Part shown: piece by piece, positions 38,629-60,857 of the stretch
Position numbering within the stretch: the stretch's first letter is position 1
How the letters are laid out: each line of letters opens with the position of its first letter
Source of the DNA: Candidatus Tayloriibacteriota bacterium
GTDB taxonomy: Bacteria > Patescibacteriota > Minisyncoccia > Phycocordibacterales > PALSA-1337
Direction of reading: 5' to 3'
DNA: 64,000 bases
Assembly (NCBI GenBank): GCA_943350765.1
Contig: CALRAJ010000002.1
Location: 7,994-71,993, forward strand
Position numbers and translations under genes: made by a program
The notes under the pieces: model-generated
What the model was told of the DNA's origin: nothing
What the model saw: the letters and a program-made list of their open reading frames with translations, nothing else
Database searches by the model: none

Positions 38629-38645
38629 ATTTTAGGACAGGTAGT

Positions 38646-38687
38646 GTAATTCCCCCGATTTTTGTACTCAAAAATCGGGGGAATTAC
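38646..38687. terminator. Perfect 18-bp hairpin GTAATTCCCCCGATTTTT-GTACTC-AAAAATCGGGGGAATTAC
   Basis: Immediately after the ligase gene; no clean T-run. Confidence 0.4.
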
Positions 38688-38693
38688 ATGCTA

Positions 38694-54070: not shown

Positions 54071-54149
54071 TATGGCTATGGTCGCGATAGGGTACTTTTT
54101 ATTTTTCTGGTATACTGAATATTACTTACTCATAGATTTAAAAGATAAA

Positions 54150-55199
54150 ATGAAAAAAATAAAAGTTGGGATAAATGGTTTTGGTCGGATTGGGCGGGCG
54201 TTTTTGAAGGTGGCACGAGAGCGAGCCGATGAACTTGAGGTAGTGGCGATCAATGATTTAGGTGATATTAAAAGTTTTGCTTATTTGCTCAAGTATGACA
54301 CAGTGTATGGTGTGAGTGATTTTGAGGTATCTGTGAAGGCAGATAATACTGCACTGATTGTGGGTGGTAAGGAGATTGTGTTTGTGAGTGAACGCGATGC
54401 GACCAAGCTTCCGTGGGGCAAGCTAGGGGTGGATGTGGTGGTAGAGTCGACGGGGCTTTTTACTAGTTTTGAAAAAGCACATGTCCATATTACGGCTGGG
54501 GCAAAGAGGGTGGTGATTTCGGCTCCTGCAAAGGATGAGGTTGGTGTTGCTGGTGCGCCGGCTGTAGCAGGTGAGACCGTCCTCATGGCAATGAATGAAG
54601 AGAAGCTCGCGACCTGCCAGATCACTTCAAATGCATCATGTACGACAAATGCTGGCTCGCCCCTCCTCGCCATTCTCGATGAGGCACTGGGTATTGAAAA
54701 AGCTTTGCTCAACACTGTGCATGGATACACCGCTAGCCAGTCTCTAGTCGACGGTCCAAACAAAAAAGATTTCAGGGATGGGAGAGCGGCGGCACAAAAT
54801 ATCGTGCCGTCTTCTACGGGCGCAGCGATTGCCGTGACCAAAATCATGACACATCTCAAGGGACTTTTTGATGGTGTGGCAATGCGTGTGCCAGTGGTGA
54901 CGGGGTCTATTGTAGATGTGACATTTGTGTCAAAGAAAAATACTACTACTGAGGAAGTTAATGCGATTTTGAAAAAGGCATCAGGAGACGCGCGTTGGAA
55001 AGGTATTTTTACGGTTACTGAGGAGCCTCTCGTCTCATCTGACATCATCGGCAACCCTCACGCCTCTATAGCCGACCTAGCTTTTACTCGTGTCGTAGGG
55101 GGTAATCTAGTAAAAGTCATGGCGTGGTATGATAATGAGATGGGGTATACGCATACCCTCGTCGAGCATGTGATTAAAGCGGGGAGGTTAATTAAATAA
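54150..55199 (+). CDS. gap: Glyceraldehyde-3-phosphate dehydrogenase (start refined from 54072)
   Basis: KVGINGFGRIGR NAD-binding, active-site SNASCTTN. Confidence 0.9.
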   Translation: MKKIKVGINGFGRIGRAFLKVARERADELEVVAINDLGDIKSFAYLLKYDTVYGVSDFEVSVKADNTALIVGGKEIVFVSERDATKLPWGKLGVDVVVESTGLFTSFEKAHVHITAGAKRVVISAPAKDEVGVAGAPAVAGETVLMAMNEEKLATCQITSNASCTTNAGSPLLAILDEALGIEKALLNTVHGYTASQSLVDGPNKKDFRDGRAAAQNIVPSSTGAAIAVTKIMTHLKGLFDGVAMRVPVVTGSIVDVTFVSKKNTTTEEVNAILKKASGDARWKGIFTVTEEPLVSSDIIGNPHASIADLAFTRVVGGNLVKVMAWYDNEMGYTHTLVEHVIKAGRLIK

Positions 55200-55545: not shown

Positions 55546-55567
55546 GACAATATTGTTTGCTTTATAA

Positions 55568-55711
55568 TTCGCAAGAAATGATAATGGGATAATGGCAATA
55601 ATAATAATTATGAGAATAATGGGGTCAAGAATAATGGGGTCAGCCACCATTAAATAAAAATGAAAAATGAGGGCTTCGCAAGAACGGTTCTTGCGAAGAG
55701 TTCTTGCGAAG
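55568..55711. repeat. Repeat cluster upstream of rpiB: ATAATGG(G) x4 / AATAATGGGGTCA x2 and TTCGCAAG hairpin plus tandem GTTCTTGCGAAG x2
   Basis: Direct repeats read from the sequence; hairpin CTTCGCAAGAAC-GGTT-CTTGCGAAG. Confidence 0.4.
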
Positions 55712-55731: not shown

Positions 55732-56181
55732 ATGAAAATCTACTTTGCCACCGATCACGCAGGGTTTGAACTCAAAAATGTACTCGTCGAGTATGTGAAG
55801 AGTCTTGGTTTTGAAGTGGAAGATTTCGGAGCAAAAAGTTTTGACAAGGAGGATGATTATCCAAATTTTATTAAACTAGCAGGGCAAGCGGTTTCGGCTG
55901 ATCCGGTAAATTCAAAAGCGATTGTACTGGGTGGCTCAGGGCAGGGTGAAGCTATAGTCTCAAACCGTTTTCACGGTGTACGAGCAGTGGTGTATTATGG
56001 TGGCAATTTAGAAACTATAAAACTTTCTCGAGAGCATAACGATGCCAACATTCTCTCTCTCGGTGCACGATTTTTGAATGTGGATGAAGCCAGGGAAGCT
56101 GTAAAACTTTGGTTGGACACGCCTTTTACTAGCGATGAGCGCCACTTGCGAAGAATTCAAAAAATTGAACAAATAAATTGA
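55732..56181 (+). CDS. rpiB: Ribose-5-phosphate isomerase B
   Basis: MKIYFATDHAGFELKN...; RpiB/LacAB fold motifs. Confidence 0.85.
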   Translation: MKIYFATDHAGFELKNVLVEYVKSLGFEVEDFGAKSFDKEDDYPNFIKLAGQAVSADPVNSKAIVLGGSGQGEAIVSNRFHGVRAVVYYGGNLETIKLSREHNDANILSLGARFLNVDEAREAVKLWLDTPFTSDERHLRRIQKIEQIN

Positions 56182-56190
56182 GTTAAAATT

Positions 56191-56615
56191 CTCCCTTTGC
56201 AAAGGGAGTACCCGTAGGGGGAGGGATTTGTATGAAATTAGTCTACGGTCAAAATTTAAAACCTCTTGCTCAAAACCTCAGGAAGTCAGGTAATCTTTCG
56301 GAGGTTTTGCTCTGGAATGAGATAAAATCGAAAAAACTGGGTGTTCAATTTTTAAGACAGAAACCTATAGATAAATACATCGTTGATTTTTATTGTAATG
56401 AACTCAGTCTTGCTATAGAGATAGATGGTGTGAGTCACGATGTTAAGGTTGATGCCGACACCAGAAGGCAAAATGTGTTAGAATCTAAGGGTGTACGATT
56501 TATTAGGTTCAGTGATTCAGATGTTAAGTGTAATCTAGAAAGTGTAGTAAGGGAAATCAAGGAATTTATCGAGAGTAAAAATCCCTCCCTTTCAGGTGCT
56601 CCCTTTAAAAAGGGA
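56191..56615. mobile_element. DUF559 endonuclease cassette bounded by about 39-bp imperfect terminal inverted repeats
   Basis: Left CTCCCTTTGCAAAGGGAGTACCCGTAGGGGGAGGGATTT; right AAATCCCTCCCTTTCAGGTGCTCCCTTTAAAAAGGGAG. Each end is a hairpin plus an 11-bp GGGAGGGATTT / AAATCCCTCCC inverted repeat. Confidence 0.5.
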
Positions 56616-56621
56616 GAATAA
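56232..56621 (+). CDS. DUF559 (Vsr/MutH-like fold) endonuclease-domain protein
   Basis: YIVDFYCNELSLAIEIDGVSHD, the diagnostic DUF559 block; the C-terminus reads through the right TIR. Confidence 0.7.
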   Translation: MKLVYGQNLKPLAQNLRKSGNLSEVLLWNEIKSKKLGVQFLRQKPIDKYIVDFYCNELSLAIEIDGVSHDVKVDADTRRQNVLESKGVRFIRFSDSDVKCNLESVVREIKEFIESKNPSLSGAPFKKGE

Positions 56622-56640
56622 TAACTAATAACTATCAACC

Positions 56641-57315
56641 ATGTCCATCTCAATCATTCCCGCAATCCTTCCAAACAGTTTCAAAGAACTTGAGGAAAAA
56701 ATGACTCAAGTAAATGGACTTGTACCTATGGTACAGGTAGATATTTGTGATGGAAAATACACCCCAAAGGCTACTTGGCCATATCGAAAGCCCGATAACT
56801 CTTTTGATGCTATGATGCGTGAGGAAAGAGGCATGCCGTTTTGGGAAGAACTTGATTTTGAAGTTGACCTCATGGCTCGTGATCCAGAAGTGCTTGTGTT
56901 GCAATGGGTAACAGCAGGTGCTAAAAGGATTATTATCCATGCAGATTCGACAGAAAAGCTTGGTGAAGTCATAGCGATGTGTAAAGATTTGGTAGAAGTA
57001 GGGGTGGCTGTCGGATTTAATACACCACTTGAAAAGATTTTGCCGTATGTAGCAGATATTTCGGTAATCCAGTGTATGGGAATAGGTAGGATTGGTTTTC
57101 AGGGCGAAGTATTTGATGATAGAGTTTTTGATAAAATACATGAAATCCGCACAACACTACCCGAGATGGAGATAAGTGTAGATGGCGGTGTAAATCTTGA
57201 AAATATAGATCAGCTCATTGACGCAGGAGTGTCTCGTCTCGTCGTCGGCTCAGCTATTTTTGGTGAAATCGATATCCACAAAGCCATTAGTGATTTTCAA
57301 GAACGGGCAGTATAA
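56641..57315 (+). CDS. rpe: Ribulose-phosphate 3-epimerase
   Basis: SIIPAILPNSF...VQVDICDGKYTP, HADSTE, GFNTPLE; Rpe TIM-barrel motifs. Confidence 0.85.
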   Translation: MSISIIPAILPNSFKELEEKMTQVNGLVPMVQVDICDGKYTPKATWPYRKPDNSFDAMMREERGMPFWEELDFEVDLMARDPEVLVLQWVTAGAKRIIIHADSTEKLGEVIAMCKDLVEVGVAVGFNTPLEKILPYVADISVIQCMGIGRIGFQGEVFDDRVFDKIHEIRTTLPEMEISVDGGVNLENIDQLIDAGVSRLVVGSAIFGEIDIHKAISDFQERAV

Positions 57316-57602: not shown

Positions 57603-58469
57603 ATGTCTTTAGAATATTCAAAAGTAAAAGAGCTAGAGCTGAAGGCGAATGACATTCGTCAGTCGATCATTCAAATGTTGCTAGAGGCTGGCTCAGGACA
57701 CACAGCTGGACCACTTGATATGGCTGATATTTTTACTTATTTATACTTTCACGCCTTAAAACATAATCCTAAAAATCCTACATGGAAAGATCGTGATAGG
57801 CTTGTACTATCAAACGGTCATATTTGCCCAGTTTTGTATTCCACGATGGCACATGCGGGATATTTTCCAGTGGCAGAATTAAAGACTTTGCGTAAATTTG
57901 GCTCTAGACTACAGGGGCACCCCCATCGAGAGTGGCTTCCGTCACTTGAGACTAGCTCTGGTCCTCTCGGCTCAGGTCTATCTCAAATAGTGGGTATGGC
58001 ATTGGCAGACCGTATAGATAATGGACGCACTTCGGGCAAACAGTTTTATTGTCTCACAGGAGACGGCGAGCTCGATTGTGGACAGATCTGGGAAGCGGCA
58101 ATGCTTGCGGGTAAAGAAAAGATTCAGAATCTAACTGTGATTATTGACCGCAATAATATCCAAATCGATGGTTTTACTGAAGATATAATGCCGTTAAATC
58201 CTCTAGATGATAAGTGGCGAGCTTTTGGCTGGCATGTTCAGGAGATAGACGGTCATAATTTTGACATGATAGATGATGCTGTCGGGCAAGCACATGCGGT
58301 GTTTGATAGGCCGTCAGTGATTATTGCAAACACGATTGCAAGTAAGGGTGTACCAGAGTTTGAAAGACGCTTTGAATGGCATGGTAAACCACCAAATAAA
58401 GAGGAGGCAGATCTGGCTTTGAGGGAACTGAGAACATGGAGAGGGAAGATTAAGGGAGAGCATGAGTAA
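57603..58469 (+). CDS. tkt: Transketolase, N-terminal (TPP-binding) subunit
   Basis: GSGHTAGPLDMADIFTYLYF..., GDGELDCGQIWEA, split-TK N-subunit. Confidence 0.85.
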   Translation: MSLEYSKVKELELKANDIRQSIIQMLLEAGSGHTAGPLDMADIFTYLYFHALKHNPKNPTWKDRDRLVLSNGHICPVLYSTMAHAGYFPVAELKTLRKFGSRLQGHPHREWLPSLETSSGPLGSGLSQIVGMALADRIDNGRTSGKQFYCLTGDGELDCGQIWEAAMLAGKEKIQNLTVIIDRNNIQIDGFTEDIMPLNPLDDKWRAFGWHVQEIDGHNFDMIDDAVGQAHAVFDRPSVIIANTIASKGVPEFERRFEWHGKPPNKEEADLALRELRTWRGKIKGEHE

Positions 58470-58525: not shown

Positions 58526-59458
58526 ATGGAAGATACAAATAAAAAAAACAATTGGTTGATAAATCATAAGAAATATTTTTTTATCCTTATCGTCTTGATT
58601 ATTGTAGTTTTCTTAACTTTAAAGTATTCTACACCCCACTTTGCATTATCCCCAAATGAAACATCAGTAAAAACATATTTATTTCCTGTTGATTCTAGTG
58701 TGAAAGATCTTTTTATATCCATTCAAGCTAGTGGCAAGACTAGTGAAAAAGTAGCCGGTTATAAAACCGATCCATCTTATGAGCTTCTCGCAAAGCATAC
58801 GGGTGGAGAAATAATGGCGTGGACTCCAGAAGAATATCTAAAAATACCTTCAGAGCTTATTGGTATTGTAGCGAATTCAAATAGCGGGGATGCTCAAAGT
58901 ATTTTATTGGCAGATCATGAAGGTGGTGGGCAAAAATTAGAGGCACATATCCTTCAACCAAGTGGTAGAGATGTTTCCTTAGAGAATAATAATCCAGATA
59001 TACAATTTTTTAATTACAGTGGTGGTATTATTGCGAAAATCAGTAGGCCACAGCTAGGGAATTGGAAAATTGAAGTTCCAGAAAAATCAACTATTTCTAT
59101 TCGAGTGTCGGCACAGTCAGACATTTCTGTTTTAGGCTTTAGTGTTATGGAACTGAGACCAAGTCGTGAAAGCGGGACGGGCTATTTTTCTACAGATAGA
59201 GAGCCAAAGAAAGGCAGTAAGGAACAGCTAGGTATTACTTTGTATGGTAATAATTCAAAAGATCGACCTGAATTCGTATTGGTGTCAGTTGACGCAGGGG
59301 ATTTGGTGAAAGTAAACTTAGAAAATAATTATCAGAATACCGAAGTGATTGATTTGATGGGTCAAGTTGCAATTCCAAAAGCACCTTTTCGGGTTATGGT
59401 GAGGGGGCAAAATAAAGATGGGGGTTTTTATCAGAGAATGATTTCACGGATTTATTAG
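58526..59458 (+). CDS. Hypothetical membrane-anchored extracellular protein
   Basis: N-terminal TM; 280-aa extracytoplasmic region; no motif. Confidence 0.4.
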   Translation: MEDTNKKNNWLINHKKYFFILIVLIIVVFLTLKYSTPHFALSPNETSVKTYLFPVDSSVKDLFISIQASGKTSEKVAGYKTDPSYELLAKHTGGEIMAWTPEEYLKIPSELIGIVANSNSGDAQSILLADHEGGGQKLEAHILQPSGRDVSLENNNPDIQFFNYSGGIIAKISRPQLGNWKIEVPEKSTISIRVSAQSDISVLGFSVMELRPSRESGTGYFSTDREPKKGSKEQLGITLYGNNSKDRPEFVLVSVDAGDLVKVNLENNYQNTEVIDLMGQVAIPKAPFRVMVRGQNKDGGFYQRMISRIY

Positions 59459-59477
59459 GCATAAATAAGTAAATAAT

Positions 59478-59831
59478 ATGGAAATTATAAACAAAAAAAG
59501 ATATTGGTTGAGAGGGGGAGTTAGCCTATCGGTCACAATTGGGATTATTTATTCGCTTGCAGTTTTATATCAAAATTACTATATTCCAACTACTGATAAT
59601 TATGCATTGACTATTATACTTGTAATAGCCATACCATTATTGGCAACTATGTATTTATTTACAGGAATTTTTAATATTAGCAATAATGATACCTTATTTA
59701 TAGATTCATTTTTAAAAAATCACAAGTTCGCCGGTTTTATAATGGAACTTTTAATTGTAATTTTGTTTTATTTCATGGTAGGAGCACTTGTTGGATGGTT
59801 ATATGGCTTATATAAAAACAGAAAAAACTAA
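59478..59831 (+). CDS. Small membrane protein (hypothetical)
   Basis: 117 aa, 3 TM. Confidence 0.35.
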   Translation: MEIINKKRYWLRGGVSLSVTIGIIYSLAVLYQNYYIPTTDNYALTIILVIAIPLLATMYLFTGIFNISNNDTLFIDSFLKNHKFAGFIMELLIVILFYFMVGALVGWLYGLYKNRKN

Positions 59832-59837
59832 TTTTTT

Positions 59838-60857
59838 ATGCTCAACCCATCACAAAAACTTAATCCGAAACTCTGGGACAAAGATGTCGAACAAGCTCCG
59901 ATTCGAAAGGGTTTTGGCGAGGGTCTGCTCGCTGCGGCCGAGTCGGATGAGCGAGTAGTGGGACTTTGTGCAGACCTTACCGAATCGACCCAGATGCACT
60001 TGTTTAAGAAAAAGTTCCCAGATAGATTTATTGAAATGGGTGTGGCGGAGCAAAATCTCGCTTCGGTGGCGAGTGGTATGGCGGCGATGGGTAAAATCCC
60101 TTTCATTACCTCTTATGCTATGTTTTCTCCCGGACGAAATTGGGAGCAGATTCGCACCACTATTTGTTACAATGACATGCCTGTAAAAATAGCTGGCTCA
60201 CATGCAGGGATATCTGTGGGTCCCGACGGTGGTACTCATCAAGCTGTCGAGGATATAGCCCTCATGCGAGTCATACCTCGTATGGTCGTGATATCACCCT
60301 GCGACGCTATTGAGGCAAAAAAGGCTACTGAGCTTTCTGTTAAAATTCATAACCCAGTCTATATTCGTCTTGCCAAGCAAAACACACCCATTATAACTAC
60401 CCTAGAAACTCCATTTGAAATAGGCAAAGCTCAGGTATTTTTTGTTTCAATAGACTACGATGCTGTATCTATAAAAAAGGGAAGGGTGGGGATAGTGGCT
60501 ACTGGGGCATTAGTCTATAAAGCCTTGCAAGCTGCGAGAAAGCTTGATGCGGAGGGTATTTTAGTAAAAGTTCTCAATTTGGCAACTATAAAACCACTAG
60601 ACACAGAGGCTATAGAAACACTCGCTAAAGAGACAGGGGGAATAGTAACAGTTGAGGAACATCAGGTTGCTGGAGGCATGGGAAGTGCTGTGGCAGAGCA
60701 TCTGGCACAGACTGTACCTGTGCCTATCGAGTTTATCGGGGTGCAGGATCAGTTTGGTCAGTCTGGCACACCAGAGGAGCTACTTTCTCACTATGGAATG
60801 GGAGAGACGGATATTATTGAGGCGGTAAAAAGACTTCTAGAAAGAAAGCCGTTTTAA
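59838..60857 (+). CDS. tkt: Transketolase, C-terminal (pyrimidine-binding plus C-domain) subunit
   Basis: GVAEQNLASVASGMAAMG, GPDGGTHQAVEDIALMRVIP; split-TK C-subunit. Confidence 0.85.
   Translation: MLNPSQKLNPKLWDKDVEQAPIRKGFGEGLLAAAESDERVVGLCADLTESTQMHLFKKKFPDRFIEMGVAEQNLASVASGMAAMGKIPFITSYAMFSPGRNWEQIRTTICYNDMPVKIAGSHAGISVGPDGGTHQAVEDIALMRVIPRMVVISPCDAIEAKKATELSVKIHNPVYIRLAKQNTPIITTLETPFEIGKAQVFFVSIDYDAVSIKKGRVGIVATGALVYKALQAARKLDAEGILVKVLNLATIKPLDTEAIETLAKETGGIVTVEEHQVAGGMGSAVAEHLAQTVPVPIEFIGVQDQFGQSGTPEELLSHYGMGETDIIEAVKRLLERKPF

Follow-up and report, generated by a model that had tools for sequence, protein, structure and literature searches.

A DUF559 nuclease gene between inverted triplex-motif repeats at the rpiB-rpe junction of a Tayloriibacteriota bacterium

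In a 64-kb stretch of the genome of Candidatus Tayloriibacteriota bacterium (contig CALRAJ010000002.1, positions 7,994 to 71,993; hereafter the window) a gene of the DUF559 nuclease family lies between rpiB and rpe, bracketed by two inverted, structured repeats. The locus raises the question of what these repeats are, and whether they and the nuclease gene belong together. A preliminary description took the unit for a selfish, mobile endonuclease cassette with terminal inverted repeats (TIRs). We find that each repeat is a hairpin followed by a tail that mirrors one hairpin arm, and that repeats of this kind stand beside DUF559 genes in about ten phyla. We consider it fairly probable that nuclease and repeats are a cognate pair, forming a REPIN/RAYT-like or homing-like module. 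Loci of other genomes are cited by our own numbers (L005 and so on).

Structure of the cassette ends

The features of the cassette, which measures about 445 bp, are listed in Table 1. In brief, each end consists of a hairpin (hairpin 1), a linker and a G-rich tail, in this order. The left end aligns with the reverse complement of the right end, as had been foreseen: the whole inverted repeat covers 56181-56229 and 56578-56626 (49 nucleotides (nt), 76% complementary) and extends 10 nt beyond each hairpin, where (T)TATT is the conserved outer end of Parcubacteria units. The hairpin and 11-bp repeat lie at each end as described before, except that the right hairpin ends at 56616 and not at 56615. 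The hairpin pattern has only two matches in the window, both bracketing the DUF559 gene, with 0.01 expected by chance, and no further copy was found in the window with one mismatch allowed.

The DUF559 domain (residues 9-113) fits exactly between the two tails. On the left, GGAGG (56220-56224) lies inside the 11-mer, 7 nt upstream of the ATG, and the left tail therefore carries the Shine-Dalgarno sequence, or ribosome-binding site (RBS), of the gene. On the right, residues N117-E129 are translated from the repeat unit, in agreement with the preliminary description. In the relative L006 the open reading frame (ORF) ends before the hairpin, so the coding of a peptide tail is incidental, a by-product.

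The tail follows a rule that holds in every lineage examined. It is the mirror of the purine arm, that is, the same strand in reversed order and uncomplemented, where G stays G and A is kept or replaced by T. Arm AAAGGGAG is thus followed by tail GAGGGATTT, AAAGGAGG by GGAGGATTT, GGAGGGG by GGGGTGG, AGAGGGG by GGGGTGT and AGGGGGG by GGGGGGT. A perfect mirror of the hairpin's own 7-8-nt arm is found at most 50 nt away for 228 of 273 hairpins; swapping the arms among units gives a mean of 34.8 and a maximum of 55, and the direct-repeat version gives 88. The tail base facing an arm A is T 244 times and A 96 times. Both units of the window have the three-block order CTCCCTTT, AAAGGGAG, GAGGGATTT. 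In the left tail the A of the purine arm is kept or swapped for T within GAGGGATTT, which makes this tail a potential third strand of an intrastrand triplex.

An intramolecular triplex, built of G·G-C, A·A-T and T·A-T triads, requires homopurine mirror symmetry, and a tail folding back is naturally antiparallel to the purine arm. Mirror repeats are, to our knowledge, not a product of replication errors. Since the tail mirrors the purine arm, the cassette ends can be read as intrastrand-triplex motifs. Judged by sequence, they belong to the known BoxC/PIT/TM class of intrastrand-triplex repeats, with a loop 1 of 2 nt, but loop 2 of the window (about 10-12 nt; up to 41 nt in relatives, median 3 nt over all phyla) is longer than the short loops by which such motifs are defined. 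The loop limits are reportedly 1-6 nt in the ITxF definition and 0-10 nt according to Hoyne. The inverted ends of the preliminary description thus stand, but as structured triplex-motif units and not as simple transposon TIRs. The linker is hypervariable (0-41 nt) and usually forms a small GC hairpin of its own.

Two other general reasons for the tail were considered and rejected. A G-quadruplex does not fit the Pelosinus units, which have two G-runs only, and Watson-Crick pairing between tail and pyrimidine arm does not fit the tails of Bacteroidales, Pelosinus and Ignavibacteria, which have T where A is needed. Nearest-neighbour folding of the window units gives hairpins only; for the right unit an alternative pairing of pyrimidine arm and tail is also predicted. 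In Rfam no family matched the units of the window region and 17 related loci, and no intrinsic terminator was predicted on the plus strand at the left or right hairpin.

The repeat class is said to have been named BoxC (Bachellier et al., 1990s), then PIT (Hoyne, Maher et al., 2000) and then TM/TMECO. The TMECO pattern is CCCTCNCCC-N3-6-GGGNGAGGG-N3-GGGNGAGGG, and its triplex forms in vitro, as seen by circular dichroism and nuclear magnetic resonance (PMC4666352). Escherichia coli MG1655 has 23 intergenic copies, the numbers vary among strains, two subtypes pair as A+B inverted doublets, and triplex motifs are associated with local instability (PMC4666352). A transposase, integrase or other mobility function has never been found near TMECO, and the text of Holder et al. 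2015 does not mention an endonuclease or ycjD (PMC4666352). In one study, 262 proteobacterial genomes yielded 3610 TMECO copies, with many more motifs in cyanobacteria and Neisseria.

Table 1. Features of the DUF559 cassette and its neighbours in the window
Feature	Position	Strand	Sequence or remark
Whole cassette segment	56182..56640	+	missing from the empty rpiB-rpe junction of relative L088
Left outer flank	56181..56190	+	AGTTAAAATT; inverted repeat of 56617-56626
Left hairpin 1, full	56191..56208	+	CTCCCTTTGCAAAGGGAG; pyrimidine arm CTCCCTTT, loop GC, purine arm AAAGGGAG
Left linker	56209..56218	+	TACCCGTAGG; mini-hairpin CCC-GTAG-GGG, 56211-56213 paired with 56218-56220
Left G-rich tail, 11-mer	56219..56229	+	GGGAGGGATTT; GAGGGATTT within the tail mirrors purine arm AAAGGGAG
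DUF559 ORF, 129 amino acids	56232..56621	+	predicted Vsr-fold PD-(D/E)XK nuclease; Pfam PF04480
Right tail	56579..56589	-	AAATCCCTCCC on the plus strand, GGGAGGGATTT on the minus strand
Right linker	56590..56598	-	TTTCAGGTG on the plus strand
Right hairpin 1, full	56599..56616	-	CTCCCTTTAAAAAGGGAG; CTCCCTTT, loop AA, AAAGGGAG
Right outer flank	56617..56626	-	AATAATAACT on the plus strand
rpiB, upstream neighbour	55732..56181	+	stop codon abuts the left unit
rpe, downstream neighbour	56641..57315	+
tkt, split in two	57603-58469 and 59838-60857		further downstream

Pairing of gene and repeats across phyla

A scan with one genome per species gave 477 relatives, from which the best 80 loci were kept (49-76% identity, about ten phyla). 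Patescibacteria, Bacteroidota, Ignavibacteriota, Nitrospirota, Desulfobacterota, Firmicutes (Pelosinus), Chlamydiota, Planctomycetota and Chloroflexota are among the groups represented. In nearly all 80 loci the ORF is flanked by perfect hairpins whose 5' arm is pyrimidine and whose 3' arm is purine (upstream in 67, downstream in 71, on both sides in 58). Near the ORF, within 100 nt of its ends, there are 5-8 hairpins per kb, against 0.08-0.12 per kb beyond 1 kb. The tail points toward the ORF in 148 of 169 oriented units (81/96 upstream, 67/73 downstream), and 43 adjacent (+,-) pairs of units enclose a DUF559 ORF. The 80 DUF559-free Parcubacteria rpe loci, 376 kb in all, served as a control and contained two hairpins, neither with a mirror tail.

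The arms differ between lineages: CTCCCTTT/AAAGGGAG or CCTCCTTT/AAAGGAGG in Parcubacteria, CCCCTCC/GGAGGGG in Bacteroidales, CCCCTCT/AGAGGGG in Ignavibacteria and Pelosinus, CCCCCTT/AAGGGGG in Ekhidna and Nitrospirota, and CCCCCCT/AGGGGGG in Desulfobacterota. The preliminary description held DUF559 genes bounded by inverted repeats to be rare; we find instead that repeats bracketing the gene are the rule across phyla. Its view of a discrete, repeat-bounded cassette gains from related cassettes with like ends at different sites in other genomes. In Parcubacteria relatives these are unrelated housekeeping intergenic sites, i.e. before recA, between obg and gatB, between ssb and efp, and between smc and the RNase R gene. 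Distant DUF559 genes (30-39% identity) also lie beside units, namely E. coli ycjD, a homologue of Neisseria gonorrhoeae NGO0050 (3HRL), and genes in Deinococcus (paaD/paaZ), Sphingomonas (gatB/yqeY and dnaG) and Picosynechococcus. Four Bacteroidales cassettes (L063, L024, L069, L071) share their context: an S-adenosylmethionine riboswitch lies some 2 kb upstream, and the downstream units are followed at once by a long ORF. In that lineage, too, different species thus have the cassette at a conserved site. There, gene callers would join DUF559 and the long ORF into a single one of 650-800 amino acids.

Units also occur apart from the gene. The flanks of the loci contain nine (+,-) doublets of 72-169 bp without an ORF, in four phyla and usually of two hairpin types (A+B). 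In these the tails meet as a palindrome (GGAGGGATTT joined to AAATCCTCC), at exactly the position that the ORF has in the cassettes. L048 has two near-identical doublets of 72-73 bp, 310 bp apart, and in L014 one and the same linker sequence is found at the cassette's right end and, 1.4 kb off, in the right half of a doublet. Linkers are at least 80% identical in 22% of the unit pairs within a locus, against 3% between loci. Tandem arrays of up to six units with 39-42-bp periods are found in Bacteroidales and elsewhere. They have neither variable spacers nor attC core sites, and an integron attC or CRISPR-like array was rejected. It should be noted that these dispersed copies and doublets lie in the loci of relatives, and that the window itself has two copies in 64 kb.

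The 129-amino-acid protein was previously called a DUF559 (Vsr-fold) endonuclease, and its place in this family is confirmed by a match to Pfam PF04480 over residues 9-113 (100.3 bits, cut-off 20.6, E=7e-29). D52, E63, D65, G66 and H69 are invariant among 39 homologues and are candidate catalytic residues; the alignment to 3HRL and 3R3P includes this E-x-D-G...H block. A profile search of solved structures found N. gonorrhoeae NGO0050 (3HRL, E=3e-22) and the catalytic domain of I-Bth0305I (3R3P, E=6e-5). The AlphaFold model has a pLDDT of 80.9, with residues 122-129 below 50 and predicted to be disordered. Foldseek with this model ranks 3HRL (TM-score 0.88, target-normalised) and 3R3P (E=9e-5, TM-score 0.59-0.76) best, then PvuRts1I/AbaSI and Vsr (1VSR; TM-score 0.54), and also returns RAP-domain mitoribosomal proteins. 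By family and modelled fold the protein is a predicted Vsr-fold nuclease. We found no other Pfam match and no extra DNA-binding domain (NUMOD or helix-turn-helix (HTH)) in it, and the gene is intergenic, with no intron or intein host.

DUF559 is a large family, with 19,173 representative clusters at 50% identity (E 0.001 or better), and some database proteins have two or three tandem DUF559 domains (P0125, P0193). Catalogued plasmids and phages hold few members, i.e. 36 plasmid records, many of them mislabelled chromosomes, and two phage records, all below 40% identity. On these grounds plasmids or phages were rejected as vehicles. Some genomes have two or three DUF559 copies within 5-13 kb, as in L024 (1395-1721, 3992-4366 and 6068-6427), L074 (2522-2839 and 4001-4351) and L030/L039, which are on one contig.

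Insertion and inheritance at the rpiB-rpe junction

The identical protein is found in several metagenomes, at the rpiB-rpe site only, and its closest homologues (76-81% identity) belong to other species and have the same position between rpiB and rpe. A metagenome scan with rpe returned 80 loci, and among them is the empty site that had been proposed as a check. In L088 the rpiB stop overlaps the rpe start (cTAATGcc), without spacer or hairpin. This genome is as close to the window as the cassette-bearing species are (gap 90%, tktN 86%, rpe 77%). In about 60 more distant Parcubacteria rpe also directly follows rpiB. The empty L088 site and these contiguous junctions show that the cassette is an insertion into an otherwise contiguous rpiB-rpe pair. 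The interruption of an rpiB, rpe, tkt gene set, already noted before, is thus borne out, with the flanking genes as then named and rpiB-rpe contiguous in L088 and most other Parcubacteria.

The cassette is polymorphic, present or absent, within the clade. Judged by the pairwise identities of tktN and rpe, L088, L005, L006 and L007 form a group to which the window is external, L088 branching between the window and L005-L007. The empty L088 is therefore nested among cassette-bearing genomes, and the cassette was either lost in L088 or entered the site twice. With the others, L088 rpiB (1887-2327) shares just 71-75% identity, against 86-93% for the gap, rpe and tktN of this genome. This suggests that rpiB, together with the cassette-free junction, was replaced by recombination in L088.

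The ratio of nonsynonymous to synonymous substitution (dN/dS) is 0.05-0.11 for DUF559 and 0.05-0.09 for rpe/rpiB, and this match indicates that the protein is functional. Within the clade the cassette is, on this sequence comparison, vertically inherited and under purifying selection as strong as that on rpe/rpiB. Over the 46 nt of the left unit the window and L006 do not differ at all (100% identity), though synonymous sites are saturated (dS >1), and the right unit is near-identical in L005 and L007. The units are thus conserved beyond synonymous sites, so the non-coding ends are more constrained than the gene. L005 and L007 have about 55 nt of other self-complementary sequence in place of the left linker, and in L006 the right linker is swapped for other sequence. 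According to the preliminary description, a resident gene would have been favoured if all relatives held it without repeat polymorphism and no other copies existed; since the left unit is disrupted in L005 and the right linker replaced in L006, the repeats are in fact polymorphic, and that refutation does not apply. Its words selfish and mobile describe putative traits. In the clade it is single-copy, diverges together with its neighbours and is under purifying selection, and mobility is a suggestion of ours, discussed below. No direct repeat is evident outside the cassette ends, where the empty L088 site is too diverged for a base-precise comparison.

In other Parcubacteria unrelated genes lie between rpiB and rpe, such as a RelE/HTH-like toxin-antitoxin pair, an inositol-monophosphatase-like gene, GlmS and a 182-amino-acid ORF (L103 2191-2832; L139 277-1074; L145; L149; L124 and L158 1144-2986; L094/L095 approximately 2391-2940). 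Because several unrelated genes were inserted there, rpiB-rpe is a recurrent insertion point. Between the split halves of tkt the small intervening ORFs are different and unrelated in each relative. The window (58526-59831) has membrane-like ORFs of 310 and 117 amino acids, L005 (6222-7056) a MazG-like ORF and another, and L006 (5151-5459) an ORF of 102 amino acids. This is therefore a second variable junction in the same operon.

Three further observations concern the surroundings. The gap (GAPDH) ORF listed at 54072-55199 begins 25 codons before its likely true start (MKKIKVGINGFGRIG, approximately 54147); gap homologues in relatives have 344 amino acids. The spacer 5' of rpiB (55560-55700) contains a degenerate tandem repeat like AATAATGGGGTCA (55580-55650) and a direct repeat TTCTTGCGAAG with a hairpin of 11-bp stem, which has a terminator score on the minus strand (55674-55698). 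A near-perfect, terminator-like palindrome of 44 nt, TGTAATTCCCCCGATTTTTGTACTCAAAAATCGGGGGAATTACA, at 38645-38688 lacks a mirror tail and is unrelated to the cassette units.

A proposed cognate nuclease-repeat pair, its rivals and known systems

We suggest that the nuclease and the repeats work as a cognate pair in the following way. An ancestor of the Parcubacteria clade would have acquired the cassette at the rpiB-rpe junction, where the two genes are tightly coupled, and the cassette would have been kept intact since. The nuclease would recognise the repeats and cut at or near them. Its substrate could be either a repeat unit folded in single-stranded DNA or, in a doublet that lacks the ORF, the palindrome where the two tails join. 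When such a cut is repaired or recombined, repeats would be copied elsewhere, now and then together with the gene that they enclose. In a RAYT-like version (a), cutting of folded single-stranded units would mobilise singlets and doublets, and the gene would remain a single, vertically inherited copy. In a homing-like version (b), the tail-tail junction would be cut, and repair from a filled copy would put the gene in the middle of the doublet, destroying the site. Both versions are equally compatible with the data. The anatomy of the cassette, its insertion, the association throughout the family, the mirror covariation and the occurrence of ORF-less doublets and arrays are directly shown by the sequences; we infer the action of the nuclease on the repeats, the position of the cut and the route of mobility. 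An excess of units over DUF559 genes is expected under either version, and it also keeps alive the explanation by independent repeats considered below.

More tentatively, and as a possibility we hold to be somewhat below even, DUF559 proteins may in general be the cognate enzymes of the BoxC/PIT/TM repeats, including YcjD with TMECO and NGO0050 in Neisseria, cutting folded triplex DNA and driving the spread and instability of the repeats. In MG1655 (L174 1340-1545) a unit 170 nt downstream of ycjD fits the published TMECO pattern. A degenerate triplex motif overlaps the stop codon and 3' end of ycjD, and about 50 nt of that end occur again, as a partial duplicate, before the full TMECO. The sapF-fabI site holds ycjD in 3378 of 5426 complete E. 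coli genomes and the eefRABCD operon in others; at least two independent replacements have been inferred, and ycjD was still a hypothetical gene in January 2026 (PMC12817139). A clean empty site for ycjD was rejected, since strains without ycjD hold the eefRABCD efflux operon and the boundaries are unreadable. Among sampled genomes, those with a ycjD-adjacent copy have about 4-6 TMECO places, ExPEC-like (extraintestinal pathogenic E. coli) genomes mostly 1 and O157 genomes 3, a pattern that is suggestive and confounded by phylogeny.

Several observations weigh against a cognate pair. The 80-locus set is one DUF559 subfamily, chosen by a single peptide pattern. In E. coli the ycjD units are on the 3' side only, the upstream element being an unrelated 43-nt hairpin (CACCTCATTCTGACAA...TTGTCAGAATGAGGTG), and E. 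coli K-12 has 23 TMECO copies to one ycjD (copy count from PMC4666352). Nine viral contigs from IMG/VR (L178-L186) carry triplex-motif units without a DUF559 ORF, and the association thus runs one way. With dimethyl sulphate footprinting, Holder et al. were unable to demonstrate the triplex in vivo (PMC4666352). We found neither a target-site duplication nor a precise recent insertion. In the clade the cassette is single-copy, vertically inherited and constrained like housekeeping genes, a pattern that would fit equally a selfish gene and one that is domesticated or of benefit to the host.

In the putative phage contigs of IMG/VR the units themselves are compact and of several different kinds, e.g. 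CTCTCCCTTTCGTAAAGGGAGA-TTG-AGAGGGATTT and TCCCCCTTTTCCAAAGGGGGA.

It is conceivable, although in our judgement unlikely, that the units are autonomous or propagated by the host and functionally unlinked to DUF559, and that they gather at recombination-prone spots or that the gene hitch-hikes in a doublet. Viral contigs with units and without DUF559, and the numerical excess of units over ycjD, would then need no further explanation, and the same can be said of the tie of the motifs to local instability (Holder et al., PMC4666352) and of the variability of the sapF-fabI site itself (PMC12817139). What such independence leaves unaccounted for is the 50-100-fold enrichment beside the ORF, the fixed inward orientation with the ORF exactly between the tails, and the recurrence of the pairing over phyla with lineage-specific repeat sequences. 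The gene's RBS is moreover built into the left tail, and mirror-tailed units are absent from the 376 kb of DUF559-free Parcubacteria loci.

We give still less credit to a resident gene with symmetric cis-regulatory or insulating structures in its transcript, which would restrain a potentially toxic nuclease through RBS sequestration, 5'-3' pairing, stabilisers or terminators, or to a RAP-like action of DUF559 on RNA. The Shine-Dalgarno sequence in the left tail, the complementarity of the right tail to the left tail and the alternative arm-tail pairing predicted for the right unit suit such a regulation, the Foldseek matches to RAP-domain mitoribosomal proteins suit an action on RNA, and vertical inheritance under strong purifying selection would be expected of a resident. 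A close relative has an empty site, however, elsewhere the gene has other contexts, and the units also occur as ORF-less doublets, tandem arrays and dispersed copies. In Bacteroidales and Pelosinus the mirror rule, with T for A, goes beyond Watson-Crick pairing of RNA; purine-motif triplexes are reported absent in RNA, and PIT elements show no promoter or terminator activity (PMC4666352). The terminator prediction for the plus strand is likewise empty.

A conventional Vsr-type mismatch nickase or solitary restriction-like nuclease with coincidental repeats is very improbable: homologues are labelled 'very-short-patch-repair endonuclease' or 'DNA methylase' in the sources and PADLOC gives a weak match to a methyl-directed restriction enzyme, but no methyltransferase is adjacent (the neighbours are rpiB and rpe), the likeness to Vsr is at fold level only (TM-score 0.54) and the repeats can hardly be a coincidence.

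Each component is known already: the class of repeats, the protein family, and REPIN/RAYT and homing as paradigms. The link between DUF559 and the repeats is the new part. We found no published link of DUF559, PF04480 or ycjD to triplex repeats in the open-access literature, and a report in a subscription journal may have been missed. Two old unknowns, the BoxC/PIT/TM repeats (since the 1990s) and the DUF559 nucleases, may explain each other, and the cross-phylum layout of a gene between repeats leads to a hypothesis that is testable in E. coli K-12, namely that YcjD acts on TMECO. If the cognate pair is real, it would represent a novel kind of element, mobile or semi-domesticated, with DNA triplexes as ends, a structure-specific (triplex/hairpin) nuclease-repeat system would join the REPIN-RAYT and homing-endonuclease paradigms, and a source of local genome instability would be explained. 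For annotation, the repeats account for odd P-P-L-x-K-G-E and P-S-P-S-x-E-G-N protein tails and for ORFs fused by gene callers.

Among known systems, REPIN-RAYT is similar in having a single-copy, vertically inherited nuclease gene between inverted short structured repeats, with the repeat also occurring as dispersed singlets, inverted doublets and clusters, here in the loci of relatives. By analogy, the pattern in the clade resembles vertically inherited REPIN-RAYT more than an active insertion sequence (IS). The RAYT enzyme is an HUH/Y1 transposase and its repeat a REP with a GTAG guide, whereas the cassette has a predicted Vsr-fold PD-(D/E)XK nuclease and a hairpin with mirror tail. ISs, TIR transposons and miniature inverted-repeat transposable elements depend on a DDE, HUH, serine or tyrosine recombinase gene, whereas the only ORF of the cassette is DUF559.

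The EDxHD homing endonucleases (I-Bth0305I, 3R3P) have a related catalytic fold and are, like the cassette, polymorphic (present or absent) at a single site. Just as a homing gene interrupts its target, the cassette ORF interrupts the palindrome that is intact in ORF-less doublets (GGAGGGATTT joined to AAATCCCTCC). Homing endonucleases have NUMOD or HTH domains and an intron or intein host, whereas the cassette protein is a nuclease domain only and is not borne by an intron or intein. The putative target of the cassette is also a repeated element, unlike that of homing endonuclease genes. Canonical Vsr is linked to a Dcm-type cytosine methyltransferase; the window gene adjoins rpiB and rpe instead.

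NGO0050 (3HRL) and E. coli YcjD belong to the same Pfam family and fold, are 30-36% identical to the window protein, and their genes also adjoin units of hairpin and mirror tail. The layout differs, since both units have the same direction in Neisseria, E. coli has units on the 3' side only and those of the window are inverted on both sides. With BoxC/PIT/TM the units of the cassette family share the same single-strand blocks (C-rich arm, loop, G-rich arm, loop and a mirroring G-rich block), two subtypes paired as A+B inverted doublets, an intergenic position and lineage-specific sequences. Loop 2 of TMECO is 3 nt, that of the window 10-12 nt with a mini-hairpin of its own; the window stem contains A/T (CTCCCTTT), unlike BoxC/PIT/TM, and there are two copies only in 64 kb. 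The published work on BoxC/PIT/TM reports no mobility gene with the repeats; the units of the cassette enclose a gene of a nuclease family.

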